Assembly (NCBI GenBank): GCA_041583775.1
Contig: JBFHFF010000007.1
Location: 3,382 to 67,381, forward strand
Direction of reading: 5' to 3'
Origin: Candidatus Moraniibacteriota bacterium
GTDB lineage: Bacteria; Patescibacteriota; Minisyncoccia; Moranbacterales; DUUL01
DNA: 64,000 nucleotides
Of this stretch, positions 29,258 to 47,232 are shown piece by piece. The position numbers were made by a program, and so were the translations under genes. How positions within the stretch are numbered: position 1 is the stretch's first letter; each line of letters opens with the position of its first letter. Under the pieces are notes generated by a model. It was not told the DNA's origin. It saw only the letters and a program-made list of their open reading frames with translations, and searched no databases.

Positions 29258-30592
29258 ATGACAAGAAAAAAAACTATTATAATAGTTCTTATACTAATCG
29301 TTATCGTTGCCATAGGATATAAACTTTTTTTTGCAGACAAGAAAGATTTGATTACATACGAAACAGAGGAAGCGAAAGTGGGGTCAGTGCAACAAACTGT
29401 TTCTGTGACAGCTGATCTGAAATCCAAACAAGAGGTTATCTTGAATTTTGAGGCTGCCGGAAGGATAAATTCCATAGATGTATATGTTGGAGAAAAAATT
29501 GCATTGGGTGATACAATAGCAACAATTGATGATGTTGTTTTAAGACAAGATCTGATGCGTGCTGAGGCTGGGCTTACTCAAGCCATAGCAAATAGTGGTG
29601 CAAACAAAGATCTTATTAGGGAGGCTGAACAGAGAAAGGACAACGCTAAAGATGTTCTAGATGAGACGGAGAGCTTAGAAAAGCAAAGAGTTAATTCGGC
29701 CGAGAGAGCATATGAAGATGCAAAAAATAATTATGAAGATGCAAAAGAATATTACGAGCAGGTTTTAAATGACAATGGTATTGATAGTTCTATTACGAAA
29801 AGTGCAAAACTTACTCTTAATTCTGCAAATTCAGCAAAACACAGTGCTGAAGAGGCTGTTGAGTCTGCAAAAAAGGCAAGGGATTTGTCCTTAGTGTCAG
29901 CCGAGAATGCAGTCAAGAGTGCAAGAGAGGGACTGGAAACTGCTGAGTCTAGTTATGTGAAAATGAGCAAAGATGCTGCAATTGAGAGTGCAAAAGCTTC
30001 GCGTGAAATGGCTTTAGTAAATTTACAAAAAGCAACATTGAAATCGCCAATAAACGGGTTGATAACTCAAGTTAATTATAAGAAAGGAGAAGTTTTGGGA
30101 ACGATTATGAATAGTTCTTTTGGAAAAATTTTATCTTCCGATTTCACATTAGAGGCTGATATTCCAGAGTCTGATATTGTGAAAATAAGACTTGATCAGG
30201 AAGCGACTGTAACTTTCGATGCCTTTGAGGAGAGTGAAAAATTTTCAGCAAAGGTCATAGAGATTGAACCAGCTGCAACTGTTATTCAAGATGTTGTTTA
30301 TTATAAGGTTAAATTAAGATTAGTAGAATCTGATATTCGCTTAAAAGAAGGTATGAGTTCTGATATTGATATTCACACGGCAGAGAAGGTAGATGTTGTT
30401 GTGATTCCAAGGAGGGCTGTGAGGATAGAAAATGATAAAAAATATGTAGATATTTTAACTGGTGAAAATGATTTAAAAACGGTTGAGGTGGAAACTGGTC
30501 TTCGTGGTGATGATGGAGAAATAGAAATAATTTCTGGAATTAGTAGCGGAGACAAAGTTGTCGTTTTTGTTAATGACCCAAATAAGGAATAG
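29258..30592 (+). CDS. efflux periplasmic adaptor (HlyD/MacA-like membrane fusion protein)
   Basis: N-terminal TM, long coiled-coil, beta-barrel and MP domains; directly upstream of MacB-type ABC genes. Confidence 0.8.
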   Translation: MTRKKTIIIVLILIVIVAIGYKLFFADKKDLITYETEEAKVGSVQQTVSVTADLKSKQEVILNFEAAGRINSIDVYVGEKIALGDTIATIDDVVLRQDLMRAEAGLTQAIANSGANKDLIREAEQRKDNAKDVLDETESLEKQRVNSAERAYEDAKNNYEDAKEYYEQVLNDNGIDSSITKSAKLTLNSANSAKHSAEEAVESAKKARDLSLVSAENAVKSAREGLETAESSYVKMSKDAAIESAKASREMALVNLQKATLKSPINGLITQVNYKKGEVLGTIMNSSFGKILSSDFTLEADIPESDIVKIRLDQEATVTFDAFEESEKFSAKVIEIEPAATVIQDVVYYKVKLRLVESDIRLKEGMSSDIDIHTAEKVDVVVIPRRAVRIENDKKYVDILTGENDLKTVEVETGLRGDDGEIEIISGISSGDKVVVFVNDPNKE

Positions 30593-30620
30593 AAGAGGTG
30601 CAAAAATTTAAAAATGCAGG

Positions 30621-31349
30621 ATGTCAAAATTGATACAAGTTGTAGATTTACATAAAACATATAAAACGGACGAAGTTGAAACACTGGCTATTTGTGGTGT
30701 TTCTTTTGAAATTCAAAGAGGTGAATTTGTTGCAATAATGGGACCGTCAGGTAGTGGGAAGTCTACATTGATGCAGATGTTGGGATTATTGGATCAACCC
30801 ACTAAAGGGGAATATTTATTGAATGACAGAAGTATTGGTAATCTCTCTGATGATGAAATGGCAAATATTCGCAATGTAAATATGGGCTTTATTTTCCAAT
30901 CATTTAACTTGCTCCCAAAAACCACAGTATATGAAAATGTGGAGCTTCCACTTCTTTATGATCATCGGAAAACTAATATAAAAGAAAATCGAGAAAAGAT
31001 TTTAAAAGCATTAAAAGCTGTTAATCTTGAGCACAGAATTGATCATTTCTCTAACCAACTTTCTGGAGGTGAAAAACAAAGAGTTGCAATTGCAAGAGCG
31101 CTTGTTAATGATCCGGATATTATTTTTGCAGATGAGCCAACTGGAAATCTTGATTCAAAATCTGGCACACAAATTATGAAAATCTTGCAAGAATTAAACG
31201 ACGAAGGAAAGACAATTATTTTAGTTACCCATGAAACTAGGACTGCTAATCATGGAAAAAGAATTATCTATGTGGTTGACGGAAGGATTGATAGTGATAG
31301 ACCAGTTACAAAGCGTTTGATTGCAAAGCAAGGGGAATTGTTAAAATAA
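30621..31349 (+). CDS. ABC transporter ATP-binding protein (MacB/LolD type)
   Basis: Walker [10 protein letters not shown], signature [15 protein letters not shown], Walker [13 protein letters not shown]. Confidence 0.9.
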
Positions 31350-31366
31350 AATATTTATCTAAAGAT

Positions 31367-32626
31367 ATGTGGTTTTTAAGCACAACAGTTGGTGCAATAA
31401 AAATTTCTTTAAAAAATTTGATCGCATCAAAAGTGCGGTCATTTTTGACAGTTCTTGGTGTTGTTATTGGTGTTGCATCTGTGATTATTATTTTTTCAAT
31501 AGGTCTTTCTGCTCAGGAATTAATATTGGATCAAATTAGAAATGTTGGTTCAAATTTAGTGATGATTATCCCGGGAGGTTCTGATGAAGATGGGCCACCA
31601 GCAGCACTTTTTGGTATATCTATAACATCTCTTACATATGAAGATCTGGAACAACTCTTAAAGAAAAACAAAGTTGCTGGAGTTGAGAATGGTGCAGGTT
31701 ATGTTATGGGGACGGCAAAAATTTCAAGTGATACAAGGGATTTAAGTAGGAGTTTTTCGGGAACCACCGCAAGTTATATCGATGTTGAAAACGCGACTAT
31801 TGAAAGTGGAAGATTTTTCACGAAAGATGAAGAGCGAAATATGACAAGGGTTGTAGTTTTGGGCAGTACTGTTGCGAGTGAACTTTTTGATGGGCGTGAT
31901 CCACTTGGGAAGGTAATTGAAATAAAAGATCAAAATTTTACAATCATAGGGGTTTTAAAAGAAAGAGGTTCTGCTGCAATGGGAATGTCTAATCAGGATG
32001 AATCAGTTATTATACCTTTAAAAACAGCCCAGAAATTACTTCTGGGAATCGATCACCTAGCACTTATTCGTTTAAAAGCTACTAATGAAAAATCAGTTGA
32101 TTTACTCAAAGCAAGTGCAACTGCAACTTTGCGTGAACAGCATAATATTGAAAACGCCTCCAATGATGATTTTACCATTAATGATCAAGCAACTGCGCTT
32201 GAATTAGTTGGTAACATAACTGATGTATTGAGATATTTTTTGCTTGCAATAGGAACAATTTCGCTTATTGTTGGAGGGGTTGGGATTATGAATATTATGC
32301 TTATTGCCGTTAATCAGAGAGTTAGAGAGGTTGGTGTGAGGCGTGCTGTGGGTGCGAAGAAAGTTGATATTCTAATTCAATTTATTGTGGAGTCTGCAAC
32401 CGTTTCTTTGGCGGGGGGAGTTATAGGAATTTTATTAGGAATTTTTATTGCCTTTATTACAGCCATCATCATTAATGCTATGGGATATAATTGGCAATTC
32501 CTATTATCGTTAAACTCTATTATTGTGGCAGTTATTATTTCTCTTGGAATAGGTTTAGTTTTTGGAGTTTATCCTGCAAGAAAGGCTTCGAAGATAAGTC
32601 CAATGGAATCTCTAAGATACGATTAG
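31367..32626 (+). CDS. ABC transporter permease (FtsX/MacB-like with periplasmic domain)
   Basis: N-terminal TM, large extracytoplasmic domain, C-terminal FtsX 3-TM bundle (NIMLIAVNQRVREVGVRRAVGA). Confidence 0.85.
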   Translation: MWFLSTTVGAIKISLKNLIASKVRSFLTVLGVVIGVASVIIIFSIGLSAQELILDQIRNVGSNLVMIIPGGSDEDGPPAALFGISITSLTYEDLEQLLKKNKVAGVENGAGYVMGTAKISSDTRDLSRSFSGTTASYIDVENATIESGRFFTKDEERNMTRVVVLGSTVASELFDGRDPLGKVIEIKDQNFTIIGVLKERGSAAMGMSNQDESVIIPLKTAQKLLLGIDHLALIRLKATNEKSVDLLKASATATLREQHNIENASNDDFTINDQATALELVGNITDVLRYFLLAIGTISLIVGGVGIMNIMLIAVNQRVREVGVRRAVGAKKVDILIQFIVESATVSLAGGVIGILLGIFIAFITAIIINAMGYNWQFLLSLNSIIVAVIISLGIGLVFGVYPARKASKISPMESLRYD

Positions 32627-32635
32627 AATTTAAAA

Positions 32636-33895
32636 ATGCGTGCATTTATAATGGCCACAAAGTTGGCTTCTAAAAATCTAACAACAAATTTAGCAAGAAC
32701 AGCATTGTCATTGTTGGGTATTGTTATAGGTGTTATGGCCATTGTTTTTGTGATGTCACTGGGTGAGGGAGTGAGGCGTTTTGTTATGTCCCAAGTTGAA
32801 GTGTTTGGTACTGATGTCATTAATATTGAAGTTAAGACTCCAAATACTGAACATGAATCATCTCAAAATGCATCTTCACAATTTGGAGGTTCACAAATCA
32901 CGACATTTAAAATTGAAGATGCCGAAGAAGTGTCAAAATTAGCAAATGTGAAAAGTTGGTATGCAGGTGGATTCGGTCAAGATGTTGTTAGTCGTGAGGG
33001 TCGAAATAAAACAGTAATGATTTATGGTATAACTTCTGGGATTGCAGATGTTGATAAGAATTTTGAAATCGAAGAAGGAGAGATGTTTGAGGAGGAAGAT
33101 GATGAAAGTTTGAAACAAGTCATTATTATTGGTAAAAAGGTAAAAGAGGACCTTTTTGAAAATGAGAGTGCATTAGGGAAGAAAGTTAAGATTAATGATC
33201 AGTCCTATAAAGTTATTGGCGTTTTAAAAGAGCGTGGTGGTGGAGGAATTCTCGATTTTAATACTATGGTCTATATGCCAATGAGAACTCTTCAGAAGAA
33301 GGTGTTGGGAACTGATTTTATTTCTTTTGCAATTTTTTCAGTCAAGGATCCGTCAAAAATTGACCTTACTGTTCTGGAAATGGATGATGTGATGCGTGAT
33401 CAACACAACATTGATGATTCTGATGATGATGATTTTGATGTTATGAGTATTGCTGAAGCCATCGATATGGTTGGAACCATTATAAACACAATGAATATTT
33501 TATTAATTGCAATGACATCAATTTCTTTGATTGTTGGAGGTGTTGGAATTACTAATGTTATGTATGTTGCAGTTGCTGAACGAACATTCGAAATTGGTTT
33601 ACGAAAATCAATTGGAGCAAAAAGTTCTGATATATTTAAGCAGTTTCTTTCAGAAGCAATATTCCTCACTTTTGCTGGTGGTTTTTTGGGAGTTGTTTTT
33701 GGTCTTAGTTTTGCTAAGTTGGCACAATTTATAGCAGAAAAAAAAATGCCTGGAATTATTTTGGAATTTCCAATAACAACGGAAGCTATTGTTTTAAGTC
33801 TTCTTTTTTCAGTAATAACAGGATTAGTTTTTGGGATGAAACCAGCGGTTACAGCTTCTAAGCTTTCACCAATGGAGGCGATAAGAAAAGAGTGA
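32636..33895 (+). CDS. second ABC transporter permease (FtsX/MacB-like) with acidic insert DDSDDDDFD
   Basis: Same architecture as the preceding gene (NVMYVAVAERTFEIGLRKSIGA). Confidence 0.85.
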   Translation: MRAFIMATKLASKNLTTNLARTALSLLGIVIGVMAIVFVMSLGEGVRRFVMSQVEVFGTDVINIEVKTPNTEHESSQNASSQFGGSQITTFKIEDAEEVSKLANVKSWYAGGFGQDVVSREGRNKTVMIYGITSGIADVDKNFEIEEGEMFEEEDDESLKQVIIIGKKVKEDLFENESALGKKVKINDQSYKVIGVLKERGGGGILDFNTMVYMPMRTLQKKVLGTDFISFAIFSVKDPSKIDLTVLEMDDVMRDQHNIDDSDDDDFDVMSIAEAIDMVGTIINTMNILLIAMTSISLIVGGVGITNVMYVAVAERTFEIGLRKSIGAKSSDIFKQFLSEAIFLTFAGGFLGVVFGLSFAKLAQFIAEKKMPGIILEFPITTEAIVLSLLFSVITGLVFGMKPAVTASKLSPMEAIRKE

Positions 33896-34117: not shown

Positions 34118-35398
34118 ATGGGAAAGAAAAAGAAGAAGAAGGAATTGGTTTCGGAGAAAGTTTCTGAAGAACAATCTAGCGAAAAAGAGATATTAGAAAA
34201 AAAGAAAACAGCATTTGTGAAAAAAATAACAGATAAACTTAAACCGAAAATAGAAAAAAAGGGAAAGAGTAAAAATGATAGTGCAAGAGTTTTGAAGTTG
34301 AAAAGTTTTTGTAATAAATTTTATCTCAAAAAAATAGCTATTTTATTTGTGGTTTTATTGTTTTTGCTTTTAGTAATTGTTCCAGTTGGAGTTTATTTTT
34401 ATGGACCACTTGGTGAAATCACAAGACCAATTTTTAAAAAAATTCCATATCCAGTTGCTTTTGTAGGTGAAGATAGGTCAATGATTTCAACAAAGCAATT
34501 GATTCAAAATGTCGATGCGGTGAGAAAGTTTTATGAAGACCAAGATCTTACAGGAAAAGGCTTACGAGTAGATTTTACTACCCCGGATGGGGAGATGCGC
34601 TTGAAAATAAAAGAGAAAGAAATTCTTGATAAACAGGTTGAAGATCAAATCATTAAACAACTTGGCAATGAAAATGGGATTGTGATTACCGTTGAAGATG
34701 CACAAAAGGAGCTAGATAGTACTGTGAAAAAAGCTGGAAGTAAAAAAGCAGTAGAATTAAAGCTCGCTGCTTTATATGGTTGGGGATTTAATGATTTGAG
34801 AGATAAAGTTATTATCTATCAAATGTATACAAATAAATTACTTGAGAAATATTCTGAAATTTCTAAAAAACAAGAAGCGTATCAAGAGATGGAAAAAGCG
34901 AGGAAAGAGTTGGAAGAAGATGGTTCAAATTTTGCCGAAATTAGCAAGAAGTATTCAGAGGGTGAAAGTGTTAAAAACGAAGGTGAATTAGGCTGGTTTC
35001 CATTAAATAAAATTGACAGTGAAGTTGCGGTTGAAATTATGAATTATAAAAAGGGTCAAATTTCAGGAGTAATTTCTAGTCGTTTAGGTTTTCACATTGT
35101 TCAACTTCAGGACTATCGAGAAACAGAGATTGTTTTGGAAGATGATGATGATGTTAATAATTTAAAGAAGGGCGATATAATCAAAAACAAGGAGGTTAAA
35201 ATTCGGCAAATATTTAAGCCAGGGATCAGTTTTGTTAAATGGGTTGAGCAAAAAAAACAGAAAACAAAAGTTTCTGTTTGGATGAAGGACTATGAATGGG
35301 ATCAAAGCAGTGGACATATTCGTTTTGCAGATGAGCAGATGCGATTGTTGGAGAAAAGGATAAAAAATCGTTCTCAAGCAGATCCTAGCATTAAATAA
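34118..35398 (+). CDS. membrane-anchored parvulin-type peptidyl-prolyl isomerase (PrsA/SurA-like)
   Basis: Lys-rich cytoplasmic N-terminus, TM, C-terminal parvulin motif GELGWFPLNKIDSEVAVEIMNYKKGQISGVISSRLGFHIVQL. Confidence 0.7.
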   Translation: MGKKKKKKELVSEKVSEEQSSEKEILEKKKTAFVKKITDKLKPKIEKKGKSKNDSARVLKLKSFCNKFYLKKIAILFVVLLFLLLVIVPVGVYFYGPLGEITRPIFKKIPYPVAFVGEDRSMISTKQLIQNVDAVRKFYEDQDLTGKGLRVDFTTPDGEMRLKIKEKEILDKQVEDQIIKQLGNENGIVITVEDAQKELDSTVKKAGSKKAVELKLAALYGWGFNDLRDKVIIYQMYTNKLLEKYSEISKKQEAYQEMEKARKELEEDGSNFAEISKKYSEGESVKNEGELGWFPLNKIDSEVAVEIMNYKKGQISGVISSRLGFHIVQLQDYRETEIVLEDDDDVNNLKKGDIIKNKEVKIRQIFKPGISFVKWVEQKKQKTKVSVWMKDYEWDQSSGHIRFADEQMRLLEKRIKNRSQADPSIK

Positions 35399-35426: not shown

Positions 35427-35606
35427 ATGAAAATTTCAATTGATGAGAGTAAGTGTATAGGTTGTGGAACTTGCGAGGTTATGTGTCCTAATTGTTTCAA
35501 GATGGATGGAAATCTTGCAAAAGTTATTGATGAAATTTGCGAAGAGGAAAATATTAAAGATGTTGTAGCTAGTTGTCCAGTGGAGGCAATTGTTGTTGAA
35601 AAATAG
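35427..35606 (+). CDS. 59-aa single-cluster [4Fe-4S] ferredoxin; not in ORF track
   Basis: MKISIDESKCIGCGTCEVMCPNCF...ASCPVEAIVVEK (CxxCxxC...CP plus a distal CP). Confidence 0.7.
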   Translation: MKISIDESKCIGCGTCEVMCPNCFKMDGNLAKVIDEICEEENIKDVVASCPVEAIVVEK

Positions 35607-35750: not shown

Positions 35751-37085
35751 ATGAACGATAATTTAATAGAACAGGAAACTGATTTTGTCATAAAAGATGA
35801 CGGGAAAAATATAAAAACAGAAAAGAAAAAGATTCCTCGGGAAATATTACAAACAATAGCAATCAGCATTTTAATTAGTGCTTTCATCGGTGGAATTGCT
35901 GGTTTTTTAGCTAGTGAAATCAGCACAGAAGGTATTAAGGGTGTTATTGATACTTTGGAAATGAAAAGAGGTACTCAAGACAAATCACAGAATTCGGCTG
36001 AAAATGAAATAAAAAGTGATAGTTCTAAATTGAGTGTTGTGGAAGAAGAATCTGCAACAATTGAAGCAGTAGAACAAGCTTCTCCAGCTGTTGTAAGCGT
36101 TATTGTCACAAAGGATGTTCCAAAACTGGATAGCTATTTCGTTGATCCTTTTGCAAATGATCAGTTTTTTAATCCTTTTGGGCTTAAAAGTACTCCAGCA
36201 GTAGAGCCAGAAACTGAGAAAAAGGAAATCGGTGGGGGAACTGGATTTATCTTAAGTGAGGATGGTTATATTATTACCAACAAACATGTTGTTAGTGACG
36301 ATAGTGCTGAATATTCAGTTGTTACAAACAGTGGTGATAAATATGACGCTGTTGTTTTGGCAAAGGATACTATTTTGGATATTGCTGTAATTAAAATTGA
36401 AGCAGAAAAATTGCCGACAATAAACTTGGGTAATTCCGATGAATTAAAAGCAGGTCAAACAGTGATTGCTATTGGGAATTCTCTTGGTGAGTTTAGGAAT
36501 ACAGTTTCAAAGGGAATTATTTCTGGACTTAAAAGAAGTGTTAGTGCCAGCGATGGTTATGGTAAATCAGAGCTTTTGGATGAAGTGATTCAGACTGATG
36601 CAGCTATTAATCCCGGTAATTCAGGTGGTCCAATTATTGATTTGAAGGGGAATGTTGTTGGTGTTAATGTTGCTATGGCTCAGGGCGCTGAAAACATTGG
36701 GTTTGCAATTCCGATTAACAATGTGAAAAAGATTTATCAAAGCGTTAAATCGACTGGAAGAATAATAAGGCCTTATATGGGGATTAGATATATGGTTATC
36801 AATGAAGAGCTTAAAGAAGTAAATAATTTGGAATTTGACTACGGTGCAATTATTGTCAGGGGGAATAGTGCAAATGAACTAGCAATTGTACCAGGGAGTC
36901 CAGCGGATAAGGCAGGTTTGTTGGAGAATGATATTATTTTAGAGATTGATGGTGAAAAAGTAGAAAAGGAAGCTGACTTTTCTAATATCATTAAAAATAA
37001 AAATGTTGGAGACGAAGTAACTCTTAAGGTGTGGAGTAAGGGTGTAGAAAAAACAATTACTGTAAAGTTAGAAGAGTCTAAATAG
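35751..37085 (+). CDS. htrA: HtrA/DegP-family serine protease with PDZ domain (catalytically intact)
   Basis: TNKHVV (His), DIAVIKIE (Asp), GNSGGPIID (Ser), C-terminal PDZ; N-terminal TM. Confidence 0.9.
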   Translation: MNDNLIEQETDFVIKDDGKNIKTEKKKIPREILQTIAISILISAFIGGIAGFLASEISTEGIKGVIDTLEMKRGTQDKSQNSAENEIKSDSSKLSVVEEESATIEAVEQASPAVVSVIVTKDVPKLDSYFVDPFANDQFFNPFGLKSTPAVEPETEKKEIGGGTGFILSEDGYIITNKHVVSDDSAEYSVVTNSGDKYDAVVLAKDTILDIAVIKIEAEKLPTINLGNSDELKAGQTVIAIGNSLGEFRNTVSKGIISGLKRSVSASDGYGKSELLDEVIQTDAAINPGNSGGPIIDLKGNVVGVNVAMAQGAENIGFAIPINNVKKIYQSVKSTGRIIRPYMGIRYMVINEELKEVNNLEFDYGAIIVRGNSANELAIVPGSPADKAGLLENDIILEIDGEKVEKEADFSNIIKNKNVGDEVTLKVWSKGVEKTITVKLEESK

Positions 37086-37225
37086 GCGTCATTGAGATGG
37101 TTATAAATTAAAGAATCATCTCTTATGATATTCTAAACGCTATAATTAAGGTATGATGGAGAGGTTGAGTTTGTGGGGACGAGGGTCGGATGTGGTTTTT
37201 TGTTAGTATTGATATTTAGAAAAGA

Positions 37226-38068
37226 ATGTTACTCAAGTTAAATGCTTTTTTGTTTAGTTTAATTTTTATGGGCGCCCTAGAACTTTCAATTCTGAGAGAA
37301 GCTTTGTTTTTTGGTGTACTTGCTTTTTTGGTGGCATTTTCAATTTTAGTTGTTTGGCCAATGGCTGGAAAAATGCGTTTTTTGGCAATTCCATTTTTTT
37401 TAAGTCTAGGCTCGTTGAGTCTTTTATATCTAATTGATGGGAGAATAGAAAGACAAGTTTTTGTTATTTTAAGTGGAGCTGTTTATTACCTAGCACTTCT
37501 TGGGGCATATAGACTGAAACTTTATGATTGTGATCAAACGGCTCAAGGGATGCTTAATTTAGCTACCCTAGCAACTGGATTCTTTTGGTTTGTTTCTAAT
37601 TATGGGTGGTATTTGAATTTTACTATTAGTGCTTGGTCACTAGTAATAACTTTTATTGGTTCCACTTTTCTTATAGGTTTGCCATCCTTAAGAATAGTCT
37701 CTGAGGCTTCTAGTAAAATTAAAGAACGAGCTAAGCAGCAAGAGGTCGGGGTTAAAAAAAGAAAAAATTCGGAAGCTGTTGAAAAAACTAACGATTTTTT
37801 TTCAGAGCAGGATTATTTAAAAATTATGATGTTAAATTTAGTTATCTCTCTAATTATGGGTCAAACAATTTGGGCATTCTCACTTTTGCCATTTGGATAT
37901 TTAACAACGGGCGTTATTACACTAATTGTTTATTTTTTAATGTGGGATGTTGTGAGGAGATACATTCAAGGGTTTTTGTTAAAGAAGACAATTGTGTTAA
38001 ATATTGTTTTGTCTATAATAGCAGTTGGCGGGATTTTATTTTCCGCACAATGGACGCTTGTTGTTTAG
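37226..38068 (+). CDS. polytopic membrane protein, hypothetical
   Basis: About 8 predicted TM helices; sits between the two HtrA paralogues. Confidence 0.5.
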
Positions 38069-39308
38069 TGTTATTTTATTTTTAAAACCATCAATAGTGA
38101 AAAAAATTGTAAAAATTACTACCTTGTGTTTATTAGTAGTATTTTTGGGGGGTCTTTCTGGAATACTAGCTGATCGATTTCTAATGCCCTGGTTGTCATC
38201 AAAAGAATCTTTAAATAAATGGTCTTTTTTTAAGAAACCTAAGGAAAATGTAACTGTTATAAATAAAACAGAGCAAGTAGTTGTTGGCGATGATTTTTCT
38301 GCTGCCAAAATTGCACAGAAAATTTTACCATCAGTTGTGAAAATTGTTTCATATGAAGAGATTGAAGTTACTGATAAAAAGAGTGATAACCTTAAAGACA
38401 CCCTTAAGGAGATTAAATCCAGTGAAGATATTCAAAAAAGAGTTAAGACTGGATTAGTTATTACCAATGATGGGCTTATAATGAGTGTTAGTAGAGAAGA
38501 GACTGAGCAAAAGAATAAATCAAAAGTAGAGTTAAGGCATAAAATTTTATTTTCTGATGGTAAAGAGTTTGATGCCGAGCTGATTCTTTCTGATGAGTAT
38601 TCAGGATTGGAGTTTTTTAAGGCAAATCAAGAAAATTTGCCTACTCCAACTTTTGGAAATTCAATGTATTTGGAATCTGGAGAAAAAATCGTTATTGTTG
38701 GAGACATTGCAGAAGAATATCAAAACAACCTTGCTTCTGGAATTATTAGTGAAGTTGATGAGAAATATACGCTATTAAACTCACAATTATCTTCATCTGA
38801 AAAAATTGAAGGTGCACTTTTGAGTGATATTAAAATTGATGAAGAAAACATTGGTGGACCAGTGTTTGATGTTAATGGAACTGTTATTGGAATTGCTAAT
38901 GTTGTTGTAAAAGATGGTGAGAAGGAAGGGTTTATAATTCCTATAAATAGCCTAAAGAGCACCATTGACAGAGTGGTTAGAGGAGAAGAAGTGAAACGCG
39001 CCAAGTTGGGAGTATACTATCTATCAATTGATAAGGAGCTTGCGCTAATAAGCGATTTGTCAGTCTCAGCGGGTGCGTTGGTTTATTCTTTCTCTGGACA
39101 ACAGGGCTTGGCTGTCAAAAGGGGTTCGGCTGCTGATTTAGCCGGTATAAAAATTGGAGATATACTCTTGACCGTGAATGGTACAGCGATTACATTGGAG
39201 AAGTCTCTTTCTAGTTTAATTTCGGAGATTGCTCCTGGTGACAAAGTTAAATTTAAAATTCTTCGAGATAAAGGAGAAGCGGTTGAAGTGGAAATTGTTT
39301 TGGAATAA
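38025..39308 (+). CDS. HtrA-like pseudoprotease with PDZ domain; catalytic His/Asp/Ser all substituted (possible GTG start at 38097)
   Basis: Aligns with the upstream HtrA, but [11 protein letters not shown] replaces [14 protein letters not shown] replaces DIAVIKIE, and ENIGGPVFD replaces GNSGGPIID. Confidence 0.75.
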
Positions 39309-39318: not shown

Positions 39319-39969
39319 ATGAGAATTGTTTTTGATCTTGACCACACCCTTTTTAAAACAAATTTGTTTAAGAAAGACTTTTTTAAGTTATTTGTGCTGG
39401 CTGGAACTGATGATTTTACAATAAGAAAAACTTACCAAAAACACCTTAAAGAAGAGGGTGGTGCCTATGATTTTAAAAAGCATTGCTCTGAGATTAAGAA
39501 AAGCAATGTGAAATTTAAAGAAAGTTTTGCAATTGCTCTATTTGAAAAATTTTTAGCGAATACAGATTTTTCAAGATATATAGAAAGGGGGTGTCTCAAA
39601 TTTTTAAAAGAGCAGAAAACTGCTGGAAGCTATCTTGTTCTATTGACAAAGGGAGGGGATGAGCTTCAGCGGATTAAAATCGAAAAAACTGGTTTTTTAA
39701 ATGTTTTCGATGAAATATCGATTTGTAAAGACACAAAATTGGATAAAATAAAAGAGTTGAAGCTCGGTAAATATGATTTTTTTATTAATGATTTATGTAA
39801 AGAAACGCTGGAAATAAGAGAAAGGTTTCCTTTATTGAGATTTGTTATGCTGGATATAGAAAATCATAAAAAAAGAGCTAAAAAATGCTCATCTTTAAAA
39901 TTGGACGATATACCAATTATCAATTCGATTAGAAACCTGGAAAGTGTTATAGAAAAAACAAGAAAATAA
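39319..39969 (+). CDS. HAD-superfamily hydrolase (start at internal Met of the track ORF)
   Basis: MRIVFDLDHTLF (DxDxT motif I); downstream K and DD motifs. Confidence 0.65.
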   Translation: MRIVFDLDHTLFKTNLFKKDFFKLFVLAGTDDFTIRKTYQKHLKEEGGAYDFKKHCSEIKKSNVKFKESFAIALFEKFLANTDFSRYIERGCLKFLKEQKTAGSYLVLLTKGGDELQRIKIEKTGFLNVFDEISICKDTKLDKIKELKLGKYDFFINDLCKETLEIRERFPLLRFVMLDIENHKKRAKKCSSLKLDDIPIINSIRNLESVIEKTRK

Positions 39970-40109: not shown

Positions 40110-42752
40110 ATGAGTAAATTTGTTTTGGATGTAATAAAAAAATGGCAATTGGTTTTGTATATTTCGCTTATGTTAAGTGCGGTGACTTTTTTTGTATCCA
40201 CTGCAATTGCTCCAAAATATAGATCAGATATAACAGTTTTGATAACTCAGAAAGATGCGGATGTGCTAACGGCATCTCAAAATGCTGAATATTTGAGTGA
40301 TGTTTTTGAGAAAGTTCTTTATACGGAATCTTTTATGAGGGGTGTATTGAAGAGTGATGCTGAAATTAAAAGAGAATTTTCAGGGGATGCTAAGAAAAGA
40401 ATAAAAGAGTGGGCAGCTGAAATTCAAACAGAGAAAGTTGGGAGTTCTGGAATCTTAAAAATAGTTGTTTTTGATCCAAGAAGCGAAGATTCCTATAAGA
40501 TAGCAACAGGCATTGTTAATAATTTTAAAGAAAATAGAACTGAATATTTTGGAGAAAAAGATGAGGTTGAAATAAAAATTCTTGATGGGCCAATAAGTTC
40601 GTCAAAAGTTGCCTATCCAGATATAAAACTAAACACAGCTCTTGGTTTTTTTGTGGGGGTTATTGGATCTCTAATGATTATTTTGTTTTTTGAAGATTTT
40701 GATTTGAGACTCGTTAGGAAGTCTAAAAGAGGGATAGCTTTTTCGATAAAGTCTGCAGAGAAAGCAATTGAGCAAAAAATCGGCGATCAGTTGGTTCGAC
40801 AACTTGAAAAGAGAAAGGATAATGTAGCTTTGGAGTATCTAGAGAAACAGTTTGAGCGAGGTGATGATTTTGCGACATCAGAAAATCCTTCATTTATAGA
40901 TACATCCATAGATACATTGAATACATTGAAGCAAGATGTTGATAGTTCGAAAGAAATAGCGAAACAAAAAAATTCGATTATAAGTGAAGAGCTTGAATAT
41001 ATTGATATTCCAGAAGAGGATGATTTTGACAAGGAGGATGAGAAGTTTTTTTATTCTGCGCATAGCCAAGAAAGTGAAGTGGGTGAGTCTATTAATAAAT
41101 CAGAAATTGTGCTGAAGGGTTCTTTTAGTAATAGGGGGGCAATAAAAGATTTGGAAAATACCAAAGAAAAAGAAGTTGAAATTGTAGACACAAAAAAGAG
41201 TAGTGAAGATTTTTGGGAAAATATGCACTCAATAGATGGTGTGGAAGATGATTTAAAAGATGATCACAAGGACAATCCTTTATTAGCAGATTCTATGGTT
41301 GATATAGATAGGTATCATGAGATTATTCAAGCTGGAGAAACTTTTAAAGGCTTTAAAAGGCTTCGAGAGCAATATCAATCAAAAGATTCGAGTGAAACTG
41401 ATATTGAAAATAAAAAAATAGCTTTAAAAGAAGACTCTGAAAAAAAAGTTGATTTTGATGGTGAAAATGATGCTATCAAACAAGGAAGAGGAGAAGTTGT
41501 TGAATTGGAAAAAGAGTTGGATTTGCCAGAGCTTAAGAGAGGTGAGGAAGAAAAAGAGAGTGATGCAAAAAGAGAGATTGTTGCAAAGAAGGACGATAAA
41601 GAAACGCAAAAGGAGTTAGGACTAACAAAAAAAACGAAAGAGCAAGTAAAAGAAGAAGCCTTGGAATTAACTGCTGTTGGTTTGAAGAAGATTTTAGCAA
41701 CTCAAAATGTTGCACAACAAGAAGATGAGAGTGATGTTGTAGTGAAAGCGAAAGAAGATGAAGAACAAAATATTTTTAAAGAAAAAGATGTTGATGAGGA
41801 AATTCTACAAGTAGAATCTATGAGTCCGATTGGTGACATTGATGAAATCGAAGAAATAGGGGAAATAGTTGAAGAAAAAGAGTCTTTGGAGCCTTCCACT
41901 GAAAAAGAAGAAATTGAAGATGAAGAAGATTTTGAGGAAATCGTAGAGAAGAAGAAAAAGAAAGAAAAAGAGGAAATAGAAAGGTTATTGGAAGAGGAGA
42001 TAAAGAAAAATGTTCAGATAGAGCAAGAACTTGTTAGTAATAAAATCAAGAAAAAAGAGGAAGATATAATTAATCAAACAAACGAGCCTGAGGAAATAGA
42101 AAGCATTGATTATATTGGAAGTGCTGACGCTAACGAGGATGATGAATTGGAATTAAACACAAAAGAGATCCAGCGTTCAACTCAGGAGGGTTCTGAACAC
42201 GGGAATGCTTTTGCTAGGCTATATGAGAAATCTTTATTTAATGATGATAAATATAAAGAACAACAAGCTAAGAGAGTAACTCATCATATGGAAATGGACC
42301 CAGAAGAGTTGGAAATGATGCGGAAGATGTTGGAGGCCGAGGGAAAGAGCGAGGAGGAGTTTGTTTTGGAAAACGGGCTTGTTGAAATTGACGAGGAATC
42401 TGCAGAAAGTTTAAAAAAAGAGAATGTGAAGGATGTTGAGTTGAATGAAAAAATCTCAATAAAAAAATCAACTTTTGAACCAGTAGAGGAGTCTGTGAGG
42501 AAAATAGAGACGACAGAAGAATTGCAAATGGGGGATAAGAAAGGCGCTGCTCCCCACGGTTTGGCGATTTTTATGGAGGAAGAAGATGAGCAAGACACAT
42601 TTGCCAGAAATTTGCTCAAGGAAAAAGTTCAAAATAAAGGGAATGAGCAATTAAAGGGACAGGCTATTGATAAGATTATTGATCCCAATAAGGAAGTTTC
42701 GGAGGAAGAAATTAAAGATAGATTAAATAGGCTATTACAAGGGGAATTGTAA
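40110..42752 (+). CDS. Wzz/polysaccharide co-polymerase (chain-length determinant) domain protein with about 680-aa Glu/Lys/Asp-rich cytoplasmic tail
   Basis: TM1, periplasmic Wzz-like region (APKYRSDITVL...), TM2 GFFVGVIGSLMIILFF, then low-complexity acidic repeats to residue 880. Confidence 0.75.
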   Translation: MSKFVLDVIKKWQLVLYISLMLSAVTFFVSTAIAPKYRSDITVLITQKDADVLTASQNAEYLSDVFEKVLYTESFMRGVLKSDAEIKREFSGDAKKRIKEWAAEIQTEKVGSSGILKIVVFDPRSEDSYKIATGIVNNFKENRTEYFGEKDEVEIKILDGPISSSKVAYPDIKLNTALGFFVGVIGSLMIILFFEDFDLRLVRKSKRGIAFSIKSAEKAIEQKIGDQLVRQLEKRKDNVALEYLEKQFERGDDFATSENPSFIDTSIDTLNTLKQDVDSSKEIAKQKNSIISEELEYIDIPEEDDFDKEDEKFFYSAHSQESEVGESINKSEIVLKGSFSNRGAIKDLENTKEKEVEIVDTKKSSEDFWENMHSIDGVEDDLKDDHKDNPLLADSMVDIDRYHEIIQAGETFKGFKRLREQYQSKDSSETDIENKKIALKEDSEKKVDFDGENDAIKQGRGEVVELEKELDLPELKRGEEEKESDAKREIVAKKDDKETQKELGLTKKTKEQVKEEALELTAVGLKKILATQNVAQQEDESDVVVKAKEDEEQNIFKEKDVDEEILQVESMSPIGDIDEIEEIGEIVEEKESLEPSTEKEEIEDEEDFEEIVEKKKKKEKEEIERLLEEEIKKNVQIEQELVSNKIKKKEEDIINQTNEPEEIESIDYIGSADANEDDELELNTKEIQRSTQEGSEHGNAFARLYEKSLFNDDKYKEQQAKRVTHHMEMDPEELEMMRKMLEAEGKSEEEFVLENGLVEIDEESAESLKKENVKDVELNEKISIKKSTFEPVEESVRKIETTEELQMGDKKGAAPHGLAIFMEEEDEQDTFARNLLKEKVQNKGNEQLKGQAIDKIIDPNKEVSEEEIKDRLNRLLQGEL

Positions 42753-42844: not shown

Positions 42845-43516
42845 ATGGATTTAAAGTTTATTATCAGAAAAAGACAAACAATAATAGTAATTTCATTGAT
42901 TGCGTTACTTTTGGTGACTATTTTTACGCTTTTACAGCCTGTTAAATATAGCGCTAAGGCCAAAGTTTTGGTTGTGCAAAAATTCAATAAGGATGTTGAC
43001 TCATATGATATTGCAAGGTCAAAAGCTTATTTAGGTGAAATATTAGCAGAAGTTGTTACTACATATCCGATTTATGATCAAGTTGCAAAAAGTGAGTTTG
43101 GTGTTGATCGAGGGTATTTTGAAAAAAAACCAGAAATTGATAATGTTGTAAAAAAATGGAAAAAAACTGTTGATGCTTCAAGCTATGGCGATTCTGGAAT
43201 TATTGAAATTGTAGTAAAGCATTCAAATGCTAAACAAGCAGAGAATATTTCAAACGGAATTTTGGAAGTGCTTGCCAATAAGCATTCAAAATATCACAAT
43301 GGTGAGAATGTCAAATTAACAACAATTGATCCCCCAGTTATTGGATTGGCATCACCTAATATTAAACTGAATCTTATGATTGCTTTTTTTATGGGACTTT
43401 CTTTTGCTTTTATTTATATTGTGGTTTTCCCGGAGCCAGAACACGACTTGAATATTTTCAAAAAAAAGAAGAGTAATTTGCTTGAAATTAAAACGCTAAA
43501 AACACTTGACAAATAA
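42845..43516 (+). CDS. second Wzz/chain-length-determinant family protein (223 aa, CapA/YveK-like)
   Basis: TM1, QPVKYSAKAKVLV..., C-terminal TM LMIAFFMGLSFAFIYIVVF; TTGACA-17-TATTGT upstream at 42779-42807. Confidence 0.75.
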   Translation: MDLKFIIRKRQTIIVISLIALLLVTIFTLLQPVKYSAKAKVLVVQKFNKDVDSYDIARSKAYLGEILAEVVTTYPIYDQVAKSEFGVDRGYFEKKPEIDNVVKKWKKTVDASSYGDSGIIEIVVKHSNAKQAENISNGILEVLANKHSKYHNGENVKLTTIDPPVIGLASPNIKLNLMIAFFMGLSFAFIYIVVFPEPEHDLNIFKKKKSNLLEIKTLKTLDK

Positions 43517-43813: not shown

Positions 43814-44467
43814 ATGACGACAAAAAAAGTTTTTTTAACAAGTTTCTTTATTTTTTTCATCGCATTGCCCGCATTTGCCTGCGAGGGACCTGAGTGTTCG
43901 GAGCCAGTGGTTCCGGACTTGTCGGAAGGTTGTATCGGCAGCTGTGATGGTGCAATTGCCATCGGGGCTGCAAATGGAGACGTCTTCGCAAATGTGAAGG
44001 TTGAGAGAGGGGATCTTTTCGCAGAAGCCTGCGGAGACTTGGAAATGGTCAATATGGCCGGAGCTCCAAGTGATGGTGTTGTATCGGTTGAAAATAAATT
44101 CGGCCGAACAGCGCTGGTGGAGAAGATATCACCGGATGGAAACACCGGTTTTCAGTTTGCGGAAGCAATTTCTGCGCAACTTAATTCGCAGGCTGAAAAC
44201 GGCGGATACACTGCCGGCGCAATTAAGGCCGAAAATACAGTTTCGGCAAATGGCAGCGCTGTCGCCTGGGAGAGAGGTGATTCTGTTGGGCTCAAAATGG
44301 ACCTTAACCAGGCCGTAAACTCAGCAGCGATGTTTTGCGCAGCTGACGGAACGACTGGAAGCCTTAACTCGGAAGTTATTGCAAATAGCTTCCAAAATAT
44401 TGAAACGGAAGCCATCACTGGCTTCCAGCAAAGTATGATATCAACAAAAATTGGTATCAACAAGTAG
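43814..44467 (+). CDS. secreted Cys-rich/Ala-Gly-rich hypothetical protein (island gene 1)
   Basis: Signal peptide MTTKKVFLTSFFIFFIALPAFA; CEGPECSEP...GCIGSCDG; SD AAGGAG. Confidence 0.7.
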   Translation: MTTKKVFLTSFFIFFIALPAFACEGPECSEPVVPDLSEGCIGSCDGAIAIGAANGDVFANVKVERGDLFAEACGDLEMVNMAGAPSDGVVSVENKFGRTALVEKISPDGNTGFQFAEAISAQLNSQAENGGYTAGAIKAENTVSANGSAVAWERGDSVGLKMDLNQAVNSAAMFCAADGTTGSLNSEVIANSFQNIETEAITGFQQSMISTKIGINK

Positions 44468-44493
44468 GAGGTGTAGGCCACAATAGGCCGATC

Positions 44494-44525
44494 AAAGCCC
44501 AGGAAATATTTTTTTCCTGGGCTTT
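44494..44525 (+). terminator. rho-independent terminator
   Basis: Perfect 13-bp stem AAAGCCCAGGAAA/TTTCCTGGGCTTT. Confidence 0.7.
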
Positions 44526-44651
44526 ATAACGAAAAATTAGTGAAATTTGAAAAAATAAGGCGAATAGAATGAAAACTTTTTCATCAGTAATTTGTAAAAA
44601 TAGGTGGCGAAATTATTTTCTTAATTGGGTATAGGAGTAATTAAAAAAGAC

Positions 44652-44680
44652 TTGACAAAAATAAAAAAAAAGTGTATAGT
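44652..44680 (+). promoter_or_regulatory. sigma70-like promoter TTGACA-17-TATAGT for island gene 2
   Basis: ttgaca 44652-44657, tatagt 44675-44680; about 170-nt leader with TGTGCAA-type inverted repeats. Confidence 0.55.
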
Positions 44681-44852
44681 TCTTAGAATGCTCTTTAAGA
44701 TAGTTTCTTATTAAAATAACCAAGTTCATCATTCATCGCATTGTGCAATGAGTGATGAATAGTTTATTTTGAGTATTTTGACAATTTAAAATTGCACATT
44801 TATTTGTGCAATAAAAAACAGTTCAGACGGAAGTCTGAACAAGGAGGAGAAT

Positions 44853-46178
44853 ATGGAAAAAATATGGATGTTAAGGTTAAGTTTGTTGTTGATGGTTCTG
44901 CTGTTTGGGTCTCAGGCTCAAGCGCAGACGAATTTTTCGGGAAATTCAAAGGTGTCGGTTGAAAATGACACCAGTAATTTTCTTAACACCCAGGTAGTTG
45001 CTGGGGGGGCCAATGTCTCAATTGACTTTGGAAGTGGAGAGGCTGGTGCTGACAAGTATCCAGGGGGATTATTGGGCGCTTATTATATGGGCGTTCCTGA
45101 AACTCCAAACATCCCCTTGCCACAGGCAAGCAAAGGTGGTTCTTGGAGGTTGCAGGCTGCAGATTTAGTATTTGCAGGTCTTCCGGCCGTGCTAACTCCT
45201 GATTCCATCAGGAGTTATGAGATGAATAAAACCATCCTTGTTGATGACAAGGATGATAAAAAGGAGCTTCGTGAGAAATTCGATAAGGCGAAGCGAAAGC
45301 TTCTTCTGAGTGCAAATGTTGTTTTGCCGGTAGTATTACCGGAAACCAACAGTATTCGTTTGAGTAAGAAGCTTCCGGCGCCCAATGGGATGCTTTTTGG
45401 AGAAAGTTATTCTCCAGCAGGCAACCTAACCTTTCATACAGTGGAAGAACTTGATGGATGGTTTCAGAAAGCGGATATGAAAAGTCTCTCTTCCGGTGAT
45501 CTTGCCGTTATGTTGGCAAGTGCCGGAATGAAGTGCGGAGCATCATTGATGGTCCCGACCGGCCAAGGTGCTGAAAATATATTCAACACAACGGCCGGAA
45601 GTAAGAGCTTGAGCGGACTGCTCTCAAGCGTTACAAATCTCGCAGGACAAAACGCTTTGCCGTCAGCAGTGTCTGCTGGCGGAGGAATTTCCGGGACTGA
45701 CGGTAACAACAATGTCGTCCATCAACCATATTTAACAGTCGCCTTGTTTAAAAAAGAGGCAGGACCTGTTAAAGGAAAACTTCAAAGAGATATTTTCTAT
45801 GAACTGGTAATGTGCGCATTGCCAGTTCCGGAGCCAAATGGAAGACTTCGATTAGAGGTGGCGAATCAGATGCTTCAGAAATATTTCGATTCCGGTCGGA
45901 ATAATGTGGAGCCACTGATTCATGCCCAGGCTAATTTAGCCCAATCCATCAAGGATGGAAAAAAGTCTCGAATCATAAAAGAGGCTTTGGCTGCCACCTG
46001 GGCTGAAAGAGTGATACTTGTGGGGCGCGGTTATAAGCAAGGACTTATGACTGAAAGAGAGTATAAAAACTCTCACCTACACAACCTTAAGAAGGCAGAA
46101 GGAGCAATGTCTTCTTATGGATTTAAGTCCATAAGAACGCTTGATCTCTGCGCAAAGGATTTGTCAAATCTAAAATAA
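44853..46178 (+). CDS. secreted 441-aa hypothetical protein (island gene 2)
   Basis: Signal peptide MEKIWMLRLSLLLMVLLFGSQAQA; SD AAGGAGG; no recognisable domain. Confidence 0.7.
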   Translation: MEKIWMLRLSLLLMVLLFGSQAQAQTNFSGNSKVSVENDTSNFLNTQVVAGGANVSIDFGSGEAGADKYPGGLLGAYYMGVPETPNIPLPQASKGGSWRLQAADLVFAGLPAVLTPDSIRSYEMNKTILVDDKDDKKELREKFDKAKRKLLLSANVVLPVVLPETNSIRLSKKLPAPNGMLFGESYSPAGNLTFHTVEELDGWFQKADMKSLSSGDLAVMLASAGMKCGASLMVPTGQGAENIFNTTAGSKSLSGLLSSVTNLAGQNALPSAVSAGGGISGTDGNNNVVHQPYLTVALFKKEAGPVKGKLQRDIFYELVMCALPVPEPNGRLRLEVANQMLQKYFDSGRNNVEPLIHAQANLAQSIKDGKKSRIIKEALAATWAERVILVGRGYKQGLMTEREYKNSHLHNLKKAEGAMSSYGFKSIRTLDLCAKDLSNLK

Positions 46179-46252
46179 CCGAAACAATTCCCGCCCAAAC
46201 TTCGGTTTTGGCGGGAACTAAAAAAACTCTTGAAAAAGAGGGAGGAGTCAAC

Positions 46253-47086
46253 ATGGCTATTAAAAGGATTGCTTTTTCATGTTTCGTCGTAGTAATTTTA
46301 TTTTCTCAGCAAATCGTTTCCGCGGAAACGATTTCGCTTGAGCAAATAAGGCAGAAGATCCAGGCAGCGCAAACTGCCGGAGTTTCAATGGTCAAAAGCT
46401 CTGATATAAAAAAAGAGCTTAAGAATAAAAAACCCAAATCACAATTTGGGATTGCCCTTAGTAATTTTGGGCAAATTCCTCTTAGTGTTTTAAGGTTGAA
46501 AAAGGGAGAGACAGTTTCTGAGCTTTCGGCAGTGGTTTCAAAGAAATCATTCCGAAGAGTAATGTCTGGGAACGGCCTCTCTCCCAGTAAGTGTGAAAAA
46601 TTGCCTGTGGGATTTGAACTTTATATCCCAACGGCATGGCTTTTGCCAAAGCTGAGACTGTCACCAGTCGAGATTGGTGTTCTCCAGGAAAGTCTTGCGT
46701 CTGCCAAAGAGGCAGCAGCAGACCTTACGGCGGAGGTTGGTCATTTAAAAGAGGAGATCGTCATTAAAGACGGTCAAATCTCTGAGTTGACAGGAAATCT
46801 TTTGGCTGAGCAGACCGCTCATGCCAAGACGAAGGAAGAGCTTTTGGCTGAGCAGACCGCTCATGCCAAAACGAAAGCCAATCTTTCGGCCCCGGCTTCG
46901 GTGGTCAAAGCCAAGCTTTCGGCTCCAGGAGGATTGGAATTTATGAATAATCCAATCTCTTGGATCGCAATAGCCTTCTTGGCTATTGCAGCAACAGCCT
47001 CTTTGGTCTTTTTGAAAAGAGGCAAAGGAAAAAAAAAGCCTGAGCAGCGCAGGACTGCTGATATAGCAGAGCCTGCAGTCAGCTAA
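46253..47086 (+). CDS. secreted LysM-like protein with tandem repeat and C-terminal TM anchor plus basic tail (island gene 3)
   Basis: Signal peptide MAIKRIAFSCFVVVILFSQQIVSA; LysM-like KKGETVSELSA...L.IP; 2x LLAEQTAHAKTK; C-terminal ISWIAIAFLAIAATASLVFL-KRGKGKKK; SD GGAGG. Confidence 0.7.
   Translation: MAIKRIAFSCFVVVILFSQQIVSAETISLEQIRQKIQAAQTAGVSMVKSSDIKKELKNKKPKSQFGIALSNFGQIPLSVLRLKKGETVSELSAVVSKKSFRRVMSGNGLSPSKCEKLPVGFELYIPTAWLLPKLRLSPVEIGVLQESLASAKEAAADLTAEVGHLKEEIVIKDGQISELTGNLLAEQTAHAKTKEELLAEQTAHAKTKANLSAPASVVKAKLSAPGGLEFMNNPISWIAIAFLAIAATASLVFLKRGKGKKKPEQRRTADIAEPAVS
46799..46882 (+). repeat. 2 x 42-bp in-frame tandem repeat inside island gene 3
   Basis: cttttggctgagcagaccgctcatgccaaRacgaaRg... 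repeated head-to-tail. Confidence 0.8.
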
Positions 47087-47107
47087 TAATGGTCCGGAAT
47101 CTCGGAC

Positions 47108-47145
47108 AAAAAGCGGTGGTACGCAATTTATGTACCACCGCTTTT
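47108..47145. terminator. bidirectional rho-independent terminator between convergent genes
   Basis: 14-bp stem AAAAGCGGTGGTAC/GTACCACCGCTTTT. Confidence 0.75.
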
Positions 47146-47232
47146 AATTTGCAAAAAATAAAAAATACTAACTAATTTAAAAAAAGATAGTAAATAATAT
47201 TAAAAATAATATGTTTTTGTTTAAAAGTTAAA

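Follow-up and report, generated by a model that had tools for sequence, protein, structure and literature searches.

What can a member of the HtrA protease family do for a bacterium once its whole catalytic triad has been replaced, and with which protein does it act? This question is raised by a stretch of 64,000 nucleotides (nt) from Candidatus Moraniibacteriota bacterium (NCBI GenBank assembly GCA_041583775.1, contig JBFHFF010000007.1, positions 3,382 to 67,381 of the forward strand), referred to here as the window, in which three same-strand open reading frames (ORFs) encode an active HtrA, a polytopic membrane protein and a catalytically dead HtrA paralogue (Table 1). An original prediction, made without database searches, had described these genes as a three-gene module, and all three ORFs were found where it placed them. 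Comparison with related loci shows that the strictly conserved module consists of two genes, one for a membrane protein of the DUF5656 family followed by one for the dead HtrA, with the active HtrA as a frequent third member. The window has a G+C content of about 33%, and its proteins have their top matches among Candidatus Moranbacteria/Moraniibacteriota of the Patescibacteria, also known as the Candidate Phyla Radiation (CPR).

The second HtrA has lost its catalytic triad

The two HtrA paralogues align by BLASTP with 24% identity over about 400 amino acids (aa; E 4e-35), and the alignment spans the protease and PDZ domains, as had been predicted, together with the N-terminal transmembrane (TM) anchor. 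The second paralogue matches Pfam Trypsin_2 (E 2.6e-13) and PDZ_6 (E 7.1e-9) in addition to the PDZ_2 match listed in Table 1, which, with a conserved loop in the same domain, bears out the proposal that the pseudoprotease retains its PDZ domain. When a profile of 32 orthologues was aligned to solved HtrA, DegP and DegQ chains, R133, G170 and I252 fell on the positions of the catalytic His, Asp and Ser, and MAFFT alignments agreed. These are the substitutions originally read from the sequence, namely His to Arg, Asp to Gly (SGLEFFKA) and Ser to Ile, and the structure-based comparison with DegP-like chains places them at the triad itself. The GGP of loop L1 is kept (ENIGGP). The active HtrA has a complete triad (H179, D210 and S291), and its motifs TNKHVV, DIAVIK and GNSGGP are largely conserved among 59 orthologues, with GNSGGP present in at least 95%.

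An AlphaFold model of the dead HtrA, built from the orthologue alignment, has a mean predicted local distance difference test score (pLDDT) of 83.9, rising above 90 in the PDZ region. The best Foldseek matches of this model are DegP, DegQ, MucD and Mycobacterium tuberculosis HtrA, with E-values down to 2.9e-25 (DegP), and the profile of the dead family matches 130 distinct HtrA sequences in the PDB (best E 2.4e-44). The protein thus has the chymotrypsin/trypsin-like fold and C-terminal PDZ domain of the HtrA/DegP family (S1C), and lacks the His-Asp-Ser triad with GNSGGP. It scores far under every NCBIfam HtrA cut-off; for TIGR02037 (degP_htrA_DO) it reaches 142 bits against a cut-off of 416.2, which the active paralogue also misses with 300 bits. 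The dead HtrA is therefore a structural member of the family that fails the catalytic-triad test and the curated score cut-offs, and the public annotations of such proteins as "S1C family serine protease" or "serine protease Do" overstate their activity. In the model, a single N-terminal helix would form an anchor with its N-terminus inside and the ectodomain outside the cell. Taken together, the protein is predicted to be membrane-anchored and outward-facing, with catalysis, judging from the replacement of all three residues, permanently lost.

Two starts had been considered for this gene, one overlapping the end of the membrane protein gene and one at the GTG at 38097. The GTG appears to be the better placed, because public data contain an identical gene call of 403 aa (P0001) and because the N-terminal region that follows it, with a Lys-rich start and the TM anchor, aligns across orthologues. 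The TTG at 38025, which overlaps the DUF5656 gene, was rejected on the same grounds, and the two genes are instead separated by a gap of 28 nt. Homologues of the dead HtrA fall into more than 438 protein clusters.

The loss is shared by all orthologues examined

The fate of the triad was followed in about 200 orthologues forming two overlapping sets, the 120 best database homologues (36-100% identity) and 81 non-identical sequences drawn for the most part from 80 GTDB species representatives. At the Ser position, the 120-sequence set holds Ile in 55, Val in 37, Arg in 9, other residues in 18 and Ser in one; the 81-sequence set holds Val in 34, Ile in 29, Ala in 7, Leu in 6, Thr in 2 and Met, Pro and Ser in one each. 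The nucleophile column is mainly Ile or Val in both, with a single Ser per set. The Asp position is Asn in 68 and Asp in 4 of the 120 sequences, and in the 81-sequence set it is Asn in 60, Gly in 8, Asp in 8, Glu in 3 and His and Gln in one each. His occurs at the His position in no sequence of either set; the 81-sequence set has Ser, Asp, Asn, Gly, Glu or Lys there, and in this set His does not exceed 20% at any column of the whole protein. H147 (ELRHKIL), tried as an alternative catalytic His, was rejected, as its column is mostly Tyr. As there is no conserved His column, an alternative triad is excluded. A sequencing error is excluded as well, each of the orthologues examined having the triad replaced.

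Outside the old active site, several features of the dead HtrA are strongly conserved. In loop L1, G253 and P255 are kept in 100% and 97% of the 81-sequence set. The TM helix is Gly-rich, with G19 in 96%, G22 in 88% and P31 in 100% of the 81 sequences. The most conserved stretch of the protein is a juxtamembrane motif in which T53, I55 and T58 are present in 100% and N56, K57, E59 and Q60 in 96-97%. This motif is disordered in the monomer model (pLDDT below 50 at residues 50-64) and is a candidate docking motif. Its sequence (NVTVINKT) also holds two N-x-T sequon-like triplets, which may be glycosylation sites or a coincidence. An SSEKxEG loop is conserved in the dead HtrAs, and in the carboxylate-binding loop of the PDZ domain G337 (95%), L338 (98%) and A339 (93%) are retained.

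The ORF of the dead HtrA is intact in the 80 GTDB species representatives (151 confirmed scan matches). Median identity to the window protein is 39% for the dead HtrA, 37% for DUF5656, 36% for PpiC, a foldase encoded upstream, and 52% for the active HtrA, so that the dead HtrA evolves about as fast as its neighbours. It is a conserved pseudoenzyme under purifying selection and not a pseudogene, and its triad loss is ancient and universal.

The middle gene encodes a DUF5656 protein

The membrane protein of the window scores 18.3 bits against Pfam DUF5656 (PF18900), below the gathering threshold of 23.3. Of its 41 orthologues, however, 39 match this family (E<=0.01, best 6.8e-13), and many homologues carry PF18900 in precomputed annotation. 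By these matches the gene can be placed in a catalogued and uncharacterised family, one that is small, with 442 clusters at 50% identity in an exhaustive profile search of 1.84 billion representatives (E<=1e-3). Searches with NCBIfam and PADLOC gave no match for the protein, and its model had no Foldseek match among solved structures (best E 1.6). The term DUF5656 is absent from every paper in the searched literature, in which the few papers on HtrA with Patescibacteria or on proteases with Moranbacteria deal with other matters, judging by their titles and abstracts. Its association with a dead HtrA is new information on this family.

Eight TM segments had been predicted for the protein, and the AlphaFold model (pLDDT 89.6) corrects this number to nine helices. 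A positive-inside analysis of 41 sequences on the nine modelled helices points to a topology with the N-terminus inside and the C-terminus outside, with mean Lys+Arg counts of 1.4-6.7 in the segments assigned to the cytoplasm and 0-0.9 in those assigned to the outside. In this topology, two loops that are among the most conserved stretches, NYGWYLNF (37598-37621) and (W/L)PFGYLTTG (37877-37912), would lie outside, and a conserved loop in which R96, D103 and T105 are invariant (37505-37552) would be cytoplasmic. The C-terminal tail, SAQWTLVV (38042-38065), would also lie outside and carries a conserved Trp. In Moranbacteria this tail is hydrophobic and of fixed length, following the pattern [ST][SAT][KR]-W-[IL]-P-[VI]-[IVL]-COOH, with Trp at -5 in 71 of 74 sequences and Ile, Val or Leu as the last residue in 69 of 74. 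Such a tail is similar to the hydrophobic C-termini that PDZ domains of HtrAs bind as ligands. Distant members of the family have only 0-3 residues past the conserved Trp.

DUF5656 and the dead HtrA form the conserved gene pair

A total of 83 related loci were analysed, 80 from species representatives and 3 obtained by contig look-up. A DUF5656 gene lies upstream of the dead HtrA gene on the same strand at all 78 loci that have upstream DNA, and is directly adjacent in 75. An active HtrA gene, recognised by a GNSGGP-type motif, was found upstream on the same strand within 6 kb at 59 of the 83 loci, and it abuts the DUF5656 gene in only 21. At 43 of the 83, clpB (868-873 aa) stands between active htrA and the DUF5656 gene (e.g. 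L024 2606-5212 and L003 769-3387); the clade of the window lacks it at this place (37086-37225 in the window), where the surrounding sequence showed no ORF of its size (about 870 aa) that could fill that role. As clpB usually intervenes and htrA abuts the DUF5656 gene in only 21 loci, the three-gene layout of the window is a local variant without clpB. The proposed module thus holds for the dead HtrA and the membrane protein, and only in part for the active HtrA. The commonest order is ppiC-fdx-htrA-clpB-DUF5656-deadHtrA, often followed by a Wzz-like gene, with a ppiC orthologue upstream at 57 of the 83 loci and the ferredoxin ORF at its position between ppiC and htrA at 54 (called Fer4 in L002 and L003).

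Seven distant DUF5656 loci were examined through a profile protein search and contig look-ups, and a degenerate HtrA is encoded directly downstream in six of them, with a PDZ domain in four (L084, L085, L088 and L090) and without one in two (L087 and L089). The seventh, L086, on a contig of 64% G+C, has no degenerate HtrA neighbour. The two distant proteins that lack the PDZ domain retain the juxtamembrane motif in the form RTTIINKT[DE]Q, and at both of their loci an active HtrA gene stands directly upstream of DUF5656, giving the same three-gene order as in the window. Since this order recurs in a very distant lineage, it is plausible that the active HtrA is functionally linked to the pair.

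The dead HtrAs of the distant loci score higher against the hidden Markov model of the dead family than against that of the active family. These scores fit, and support without proving, a single old duplication co-inherited with DUF5656. An unrooted neighbour-joining tree without an outgroup separated all active from all dead copies in 100 of 100 bootstraps, from which no more follows than that the active copies group together. A mirror-tree comparison of PpiC, active HtrA, DUF5656 and dead HtrA at 51 loci gave pairwise correlations of 0.81-0.86 for all pairs and partial correlations of 0.16-0.40.

Some further genes were noticed near the pair in distant lineages. One lineage has a gene with the look of a subtilisin-type (S8) peptidase after the pair, as judged by eye (L084 7128-8474 and L090 4672-6291), which, if so, is another extracytoplasmic protease neighbour. 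The same lineage carries a bPH_2 membrane protein upstream. In L088 (3073-4869) an extracytoplasmic function (ECF)-type sigma-70 factor and a DUF5667 protein are encoded about 600 bp downstream of the pair, a single occurrence that is a possible hint of an envelope-stress link.

A non-catalytic membrane complex and its alternatives

The best reading is still of the kind first put forward, with the dead HtrA as a partner that regulates or acts only as a chaperone, or as part of a complex anchored in the membrane. In the form that we favour, and to which we would give about an even chance of being right, the dead HtrA and DUF5656 would associate in the membrane, and the dead HtrA would contribute an ectodomain that binds clients or serves as an adaptor without catalysis, together with the active HtrA and PpiC. 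The predicted topologies are compatible with such a complex, as the C-terminus and most conserved loops of DUF5656 would face outward and the dead HtrA would be anchored with its N-terminus inside. The dead HtrA would dock on DUF5656 within the membrane, with its conserved Gly-rich TM helix and its TVINKTEQ motif as candidate contacts, the latter against the conserved outer loops of DUF5656, and the PDZ domain could possibly bind the hydrophobic outward tail of DUF5656. The pair would then act without catalysis, either holding unfolded exported proteins or serving as an adaptor at the membrane surface, and would hand clients to the active HtrA or the PpiC foldase, or modulate these.

Several observations weigh against this explanation. 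At L087 and L089 the pair persists with a dead partner that has no PDZ domain, and distant DUF5656 members have a tail of only 0-3 residues beyond the conserved Trp; because of these two findings, the contact between tail and PDZ domain is only a hypothesis, and the PDZ domain of the active HtrA is an equally possible target. DUF5656 has no recognisable fold relative among the solved structures searched with Foldseek, and the mirror-tree comparison does not single out the DUF5656-dead HtrA pair, with a partial correlation of 0.30 in the range of 0.16-0.40 for the others. Finally, 24 of the 83 loci have no active HtrA within 6 kb, so that a direct dependence on the active paralogue is uncertain.

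The last point bears also on a second explanation, which we regard as unlikely, in which the dead HtrA regulates the active one through mixed trimers or higher oligomers, tuning or localising proteolysis, with DUF5656 as a mere membrane platform. The paralogues align even over the TM anchor (FIGGIAGFLA in one), and the active gene is co-oriented upstream at 59 of the 83 loci and stands directly upstream of DUF5656 in 21 of them and in two distant lineages. To this can be added that HtrAs are obligate trimers formed through their protease domains and that a degenerated protease domain is an oligomerisation module in DEG7 (PMC3194040). The two paralogues are, however, only 24% identical, the active gene is not found within 6 kb at 24 of the 83 loci, and the invariant partner is DUF5656 and not the active HtrA. 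We know of no documented hetero-oligomers of HtrAs this diverged, which also counts against such mixing.

A third explanation, which we judge similarly doubtful, assigns the output to DUF5656, a transporter, channel or enzyme in this scheme, which would be switched by the dead HtrA when its PDZ domain and pseudoprotease ectodomain sense unfolded or C-terminally exposed envelope proteins. It can be likened to PDZ sensing of the DegS type or to MamO with the effector function in its membrane domain. DUF5656 has conserved polar motifs on both faces, including R96, D103 and T105 in the cytoplasmic loop; the carboxylate-binding loop of the PDZ domain is conserved, and the fixed-length hydrophobic tail of DUF5656 could be displaced by competing C-termini. 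In the MamO system, activation of the protease MamE needs the transporter-like domain of MamO and not its dead protease domain (PMC4794232). Against a switch of this kind, DUF5656 has no similarity to a transporter, channel or enzyme in Pfam, Foldseek or NCBIfam searches and no cytoplasmic output domain, and the dead partners at L087 and L089 lack the PDZ domain. Nor does the pair fit the DegS/RseA type of stress sensor, in which relief through the PDZ domain activates a competent protease that cleaves a membrane anti-sigma factor, as the protease domain of the dead HtrA is dead and no anti-sigma-like domain was found in DUF5656 with Pfam or NCBIfam. The possibility that the two proteins are a CPR/Patescibacteria-specific envelope device, in which the pseudoprotease and its PDZ domain gate DUF5656 (for transport, lipid or cell-wall handling, or signalling) by reading the folding state or C-termini of exported proteins, is likewise a tentative one that we would not expect to hold. 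If true, such a device would be a non-proteolytic equivalent of a DegS-type stress sensor, derived from an ancient HtrA duplication.

Much less credible is that the dead HtrA is still a protease through non-canonical residues. Conserved K197 (96%), S189 (90%), S234 (79%), E235 and E238 make a pair of the Ser-Lys type conceivable, but the nucleophile position is aliphatic (Ile or Val), no His is conserved and the Asp position is mostly Asn; moreover, to our knowledge no enzyme of the chymotrypsin fold has moved its nucleophile in a comparable manner. Decay of the gene, or an artefact of assembly or sequencing, for which nothing speaks beyond the triad loss itself, is effectively refuted by the conservation data, as the full-length ORF is intact at every locus examined, the same class of substitution is shared by over 100 orthologues with identities as low as 34%, and motifs outside the old active site are strongly conserved. 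A role in a defence system was considered separately and rejected, PADLOC having given just weak generic protease-domain matches.

Comparison with known HtrA pseudoproteases

For the favoured complex of DUF5656 and dead HtrA, the nearest analogue is the MamO/MamE system. In MamO, a trypsin/HtrA-like domain that is dead as an enzyme is joined to a polytopic TauE-like domain; the protein non-catalytically stimulates proteolysis by MamE, an active HtrA, and arose by duplication of a redundant HtrA-like gene (PMC4794232). The likeness lies in a degenerate HtrA-type active site within a kept fold, a polytopic membrane module and an active HtrA encoded nearby. The membrane module is, however, fused in MamO, whereas here it is the product of a separate upstream gene of the unrelated family DUF5656; the dead HtrA has no fused membrane domain beyond its single N-terminal anchor, and the DUF5656 gene has no Pfam TauE match. 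MamO lacks a PDZ domain and has a surface di-His metal site, while the dead HtrA keeps the PDZ domain and has no conserved His. The setting also differs, being biomineralisation there and general envelope proteostasis in Patescibacteria here. As the dead HtrA scores 25.1 bits against the NCBIfam MamO model (NF040961; cut-off 800), it is not a member of the MamO family.

The dead HtrA resembles membrane-anchored HtrAs of monoderms and DegP, DegQ and DegS (MEROPS S1C) in its N-terminal TM anchor, chymotrypsin fold, single C-terminal PDZ domain and outward orientation, and it retains the PDZ carboxylate-binding loop of canonical HtrAs. It differs from these in the replacement of all three catalytic residues, in the additional invariant TVINKTEQ motif and in its obligate genomic partner. 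A further precedent is DegP S210A, which retains chaperone activity. A further likeness is to plant DEG7 and yeast Nma111, in which a duplicated HtrA protease domain has lost activity and been kept for protein-protein interaction. In DEG7 the degenerated and the active domain share one polypeptide and the former mediates homotrimerisation (PMC3194040), whereas the dead HtrA is a membrane protein of its own, with a nine-TM protein as its partner.

Gene layout and neighbouring genes

The coordinates of the cluster are collected in Table 1. The intergenic gap between the active HtrA gene and the membrane protein gene is 140 nt, and about 10 nt separate the dead HtrA gene from the HAD hydrolase gene. 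No convincing terminator was seen between the cluster genes, so that co-transcription is likely on sequence grounds. The ferredoxin ORF places a redox protein inside an envelope-proteostasis cluster.

Table 1. Positions of the cluster genes and of features of their products in the window.
Feature	Position	Strand	Basis or remark
Membrane-anchored PpiC-type peptidyl-prolyl isomerase (PrsA/SurA-like foldase)	34118-35398	+	Pfam Rotamase E 5.8e-19; first gene of the cluster
4Fe-4S ferredoxin ORF, 59 aa, between ppiC and htrA	35427-35606	+	CxxCxxC...CP motif; weak NCBIfam ferredoxin matches
Active HtrA, 444 aa	35751-37085	+	Pfam Trypsin_2 E 3.3e-34, PDZ_2 E 2.4e-14; TM anchor, protease domain, one PDZ
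Active HtrA, N-terminal TM anchor	35847-35915	+	
Active HtrA, H179	36285-36287	+	Motif TNKHVV
Active HtrA, D210	36378-36380	+	Motif LDIAVIK
Active HtrA, S291	36621-36623	+	Motif GNSGGP
DUF5656-type polytopic membrane protein, 280 aa	37226-38068	+	9 TM helices (model)
Dead HtrA paralogue, 403 aa, GTG start	38097-39308	+	BLASTP, Pfam, AlphaFold, Foldseek
Dead HtrA, N-terminal TM anchor, residues 2-34	38100-38198	+	Helix in AlphaFold model; conserved G19, G22, P31
Dead HtrA, juxtamembrane motif, residues 51-63, core TVINKTEQ	38247-38285	+	Conservation
Dead HtrA, R133 at catalytic His position	38493-38495	+	Profile alignment to solved HtrAs
Dead HtrA, G170 (YSGLEFFKA) at catalytic Asp position	38604-38606	+	Profile and MAFFT alignments
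Dead HtrA, I252 (ENIGGP) at nucleophile Ser position	38850-38852	+	Profile and MAFFT alignments
Dead HtrA, PDZ domain	38994-39305	+	Pfam PDZ_2 E 1.4e-10
Dead HtrA, PDZ carboxylate-binding loop SGQQGLAV	39093-39116	+	Strong conservation
HAD hydrolase	39319-39969	+	ATG at 39319

Directly upstream of the proteostasis cluster, a MacAB-type export set (29258-33895, +) comprises an HlyD-like adaptor, an ABC ATPase and two tandem MacB/FtsX permease paralogues (31367-32626 and 32636-33895). A MacB gene is near the DUF5656-dead HtrA pair at 13 of the 83 loci, sometimes downstream on the opposite strand. On the other side, two proteins (40110-42752 and 42845-43516, +) have Wzz/CpsC-like chain-length-determinant N-terminal domains, by weak Pfam matches and NCBIfam polys_exp_MPA1 (E 9.8e-9), the first of them fused to an extremely acidic, Glu/Lys-rich low-complexity region of about 650 aa. 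A Wzz-like gene lies 3' of the dead HtrA gene at 27 of the 83 loci and in the distant L085. Further downstream, the G+C content rises to 39-43% in 44001-48000, compared with about 33% elsewhere; the ORFs 44853-46178 and 46208-47086 in this region have no Pfam match and Rfam finds no rRNA there. This part of the window may be foreign or otherwise unusual DNA.

Significance for Patescibacteria and for the DUF5656 family

HtrA pseudoproteases are already known as a kind of protein, and what is new here is the dedicated nine-TM partner. As the dead HtrA is always encoded right after DUF5656, the two proteins suggest an undescribed two-protein, non-enzymatic unit in the quality control of cell-envelope proteins. 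They also provide a bacterial, phylogenetically well-sampled case of a protease turned pseudoenzyme, parallel to MamO and independent of it, and the pairing is the first functional lead for DUF5656. Patescibacteria have genomes of about 1 Mb and have shed most non-essential genes. That a dead protease and its dedicated membrane partner have been strictly kept in such a reduced genome implies that they have an important role without catalysis at the surface of the cell, which is the interface on which these episymbionts depend.

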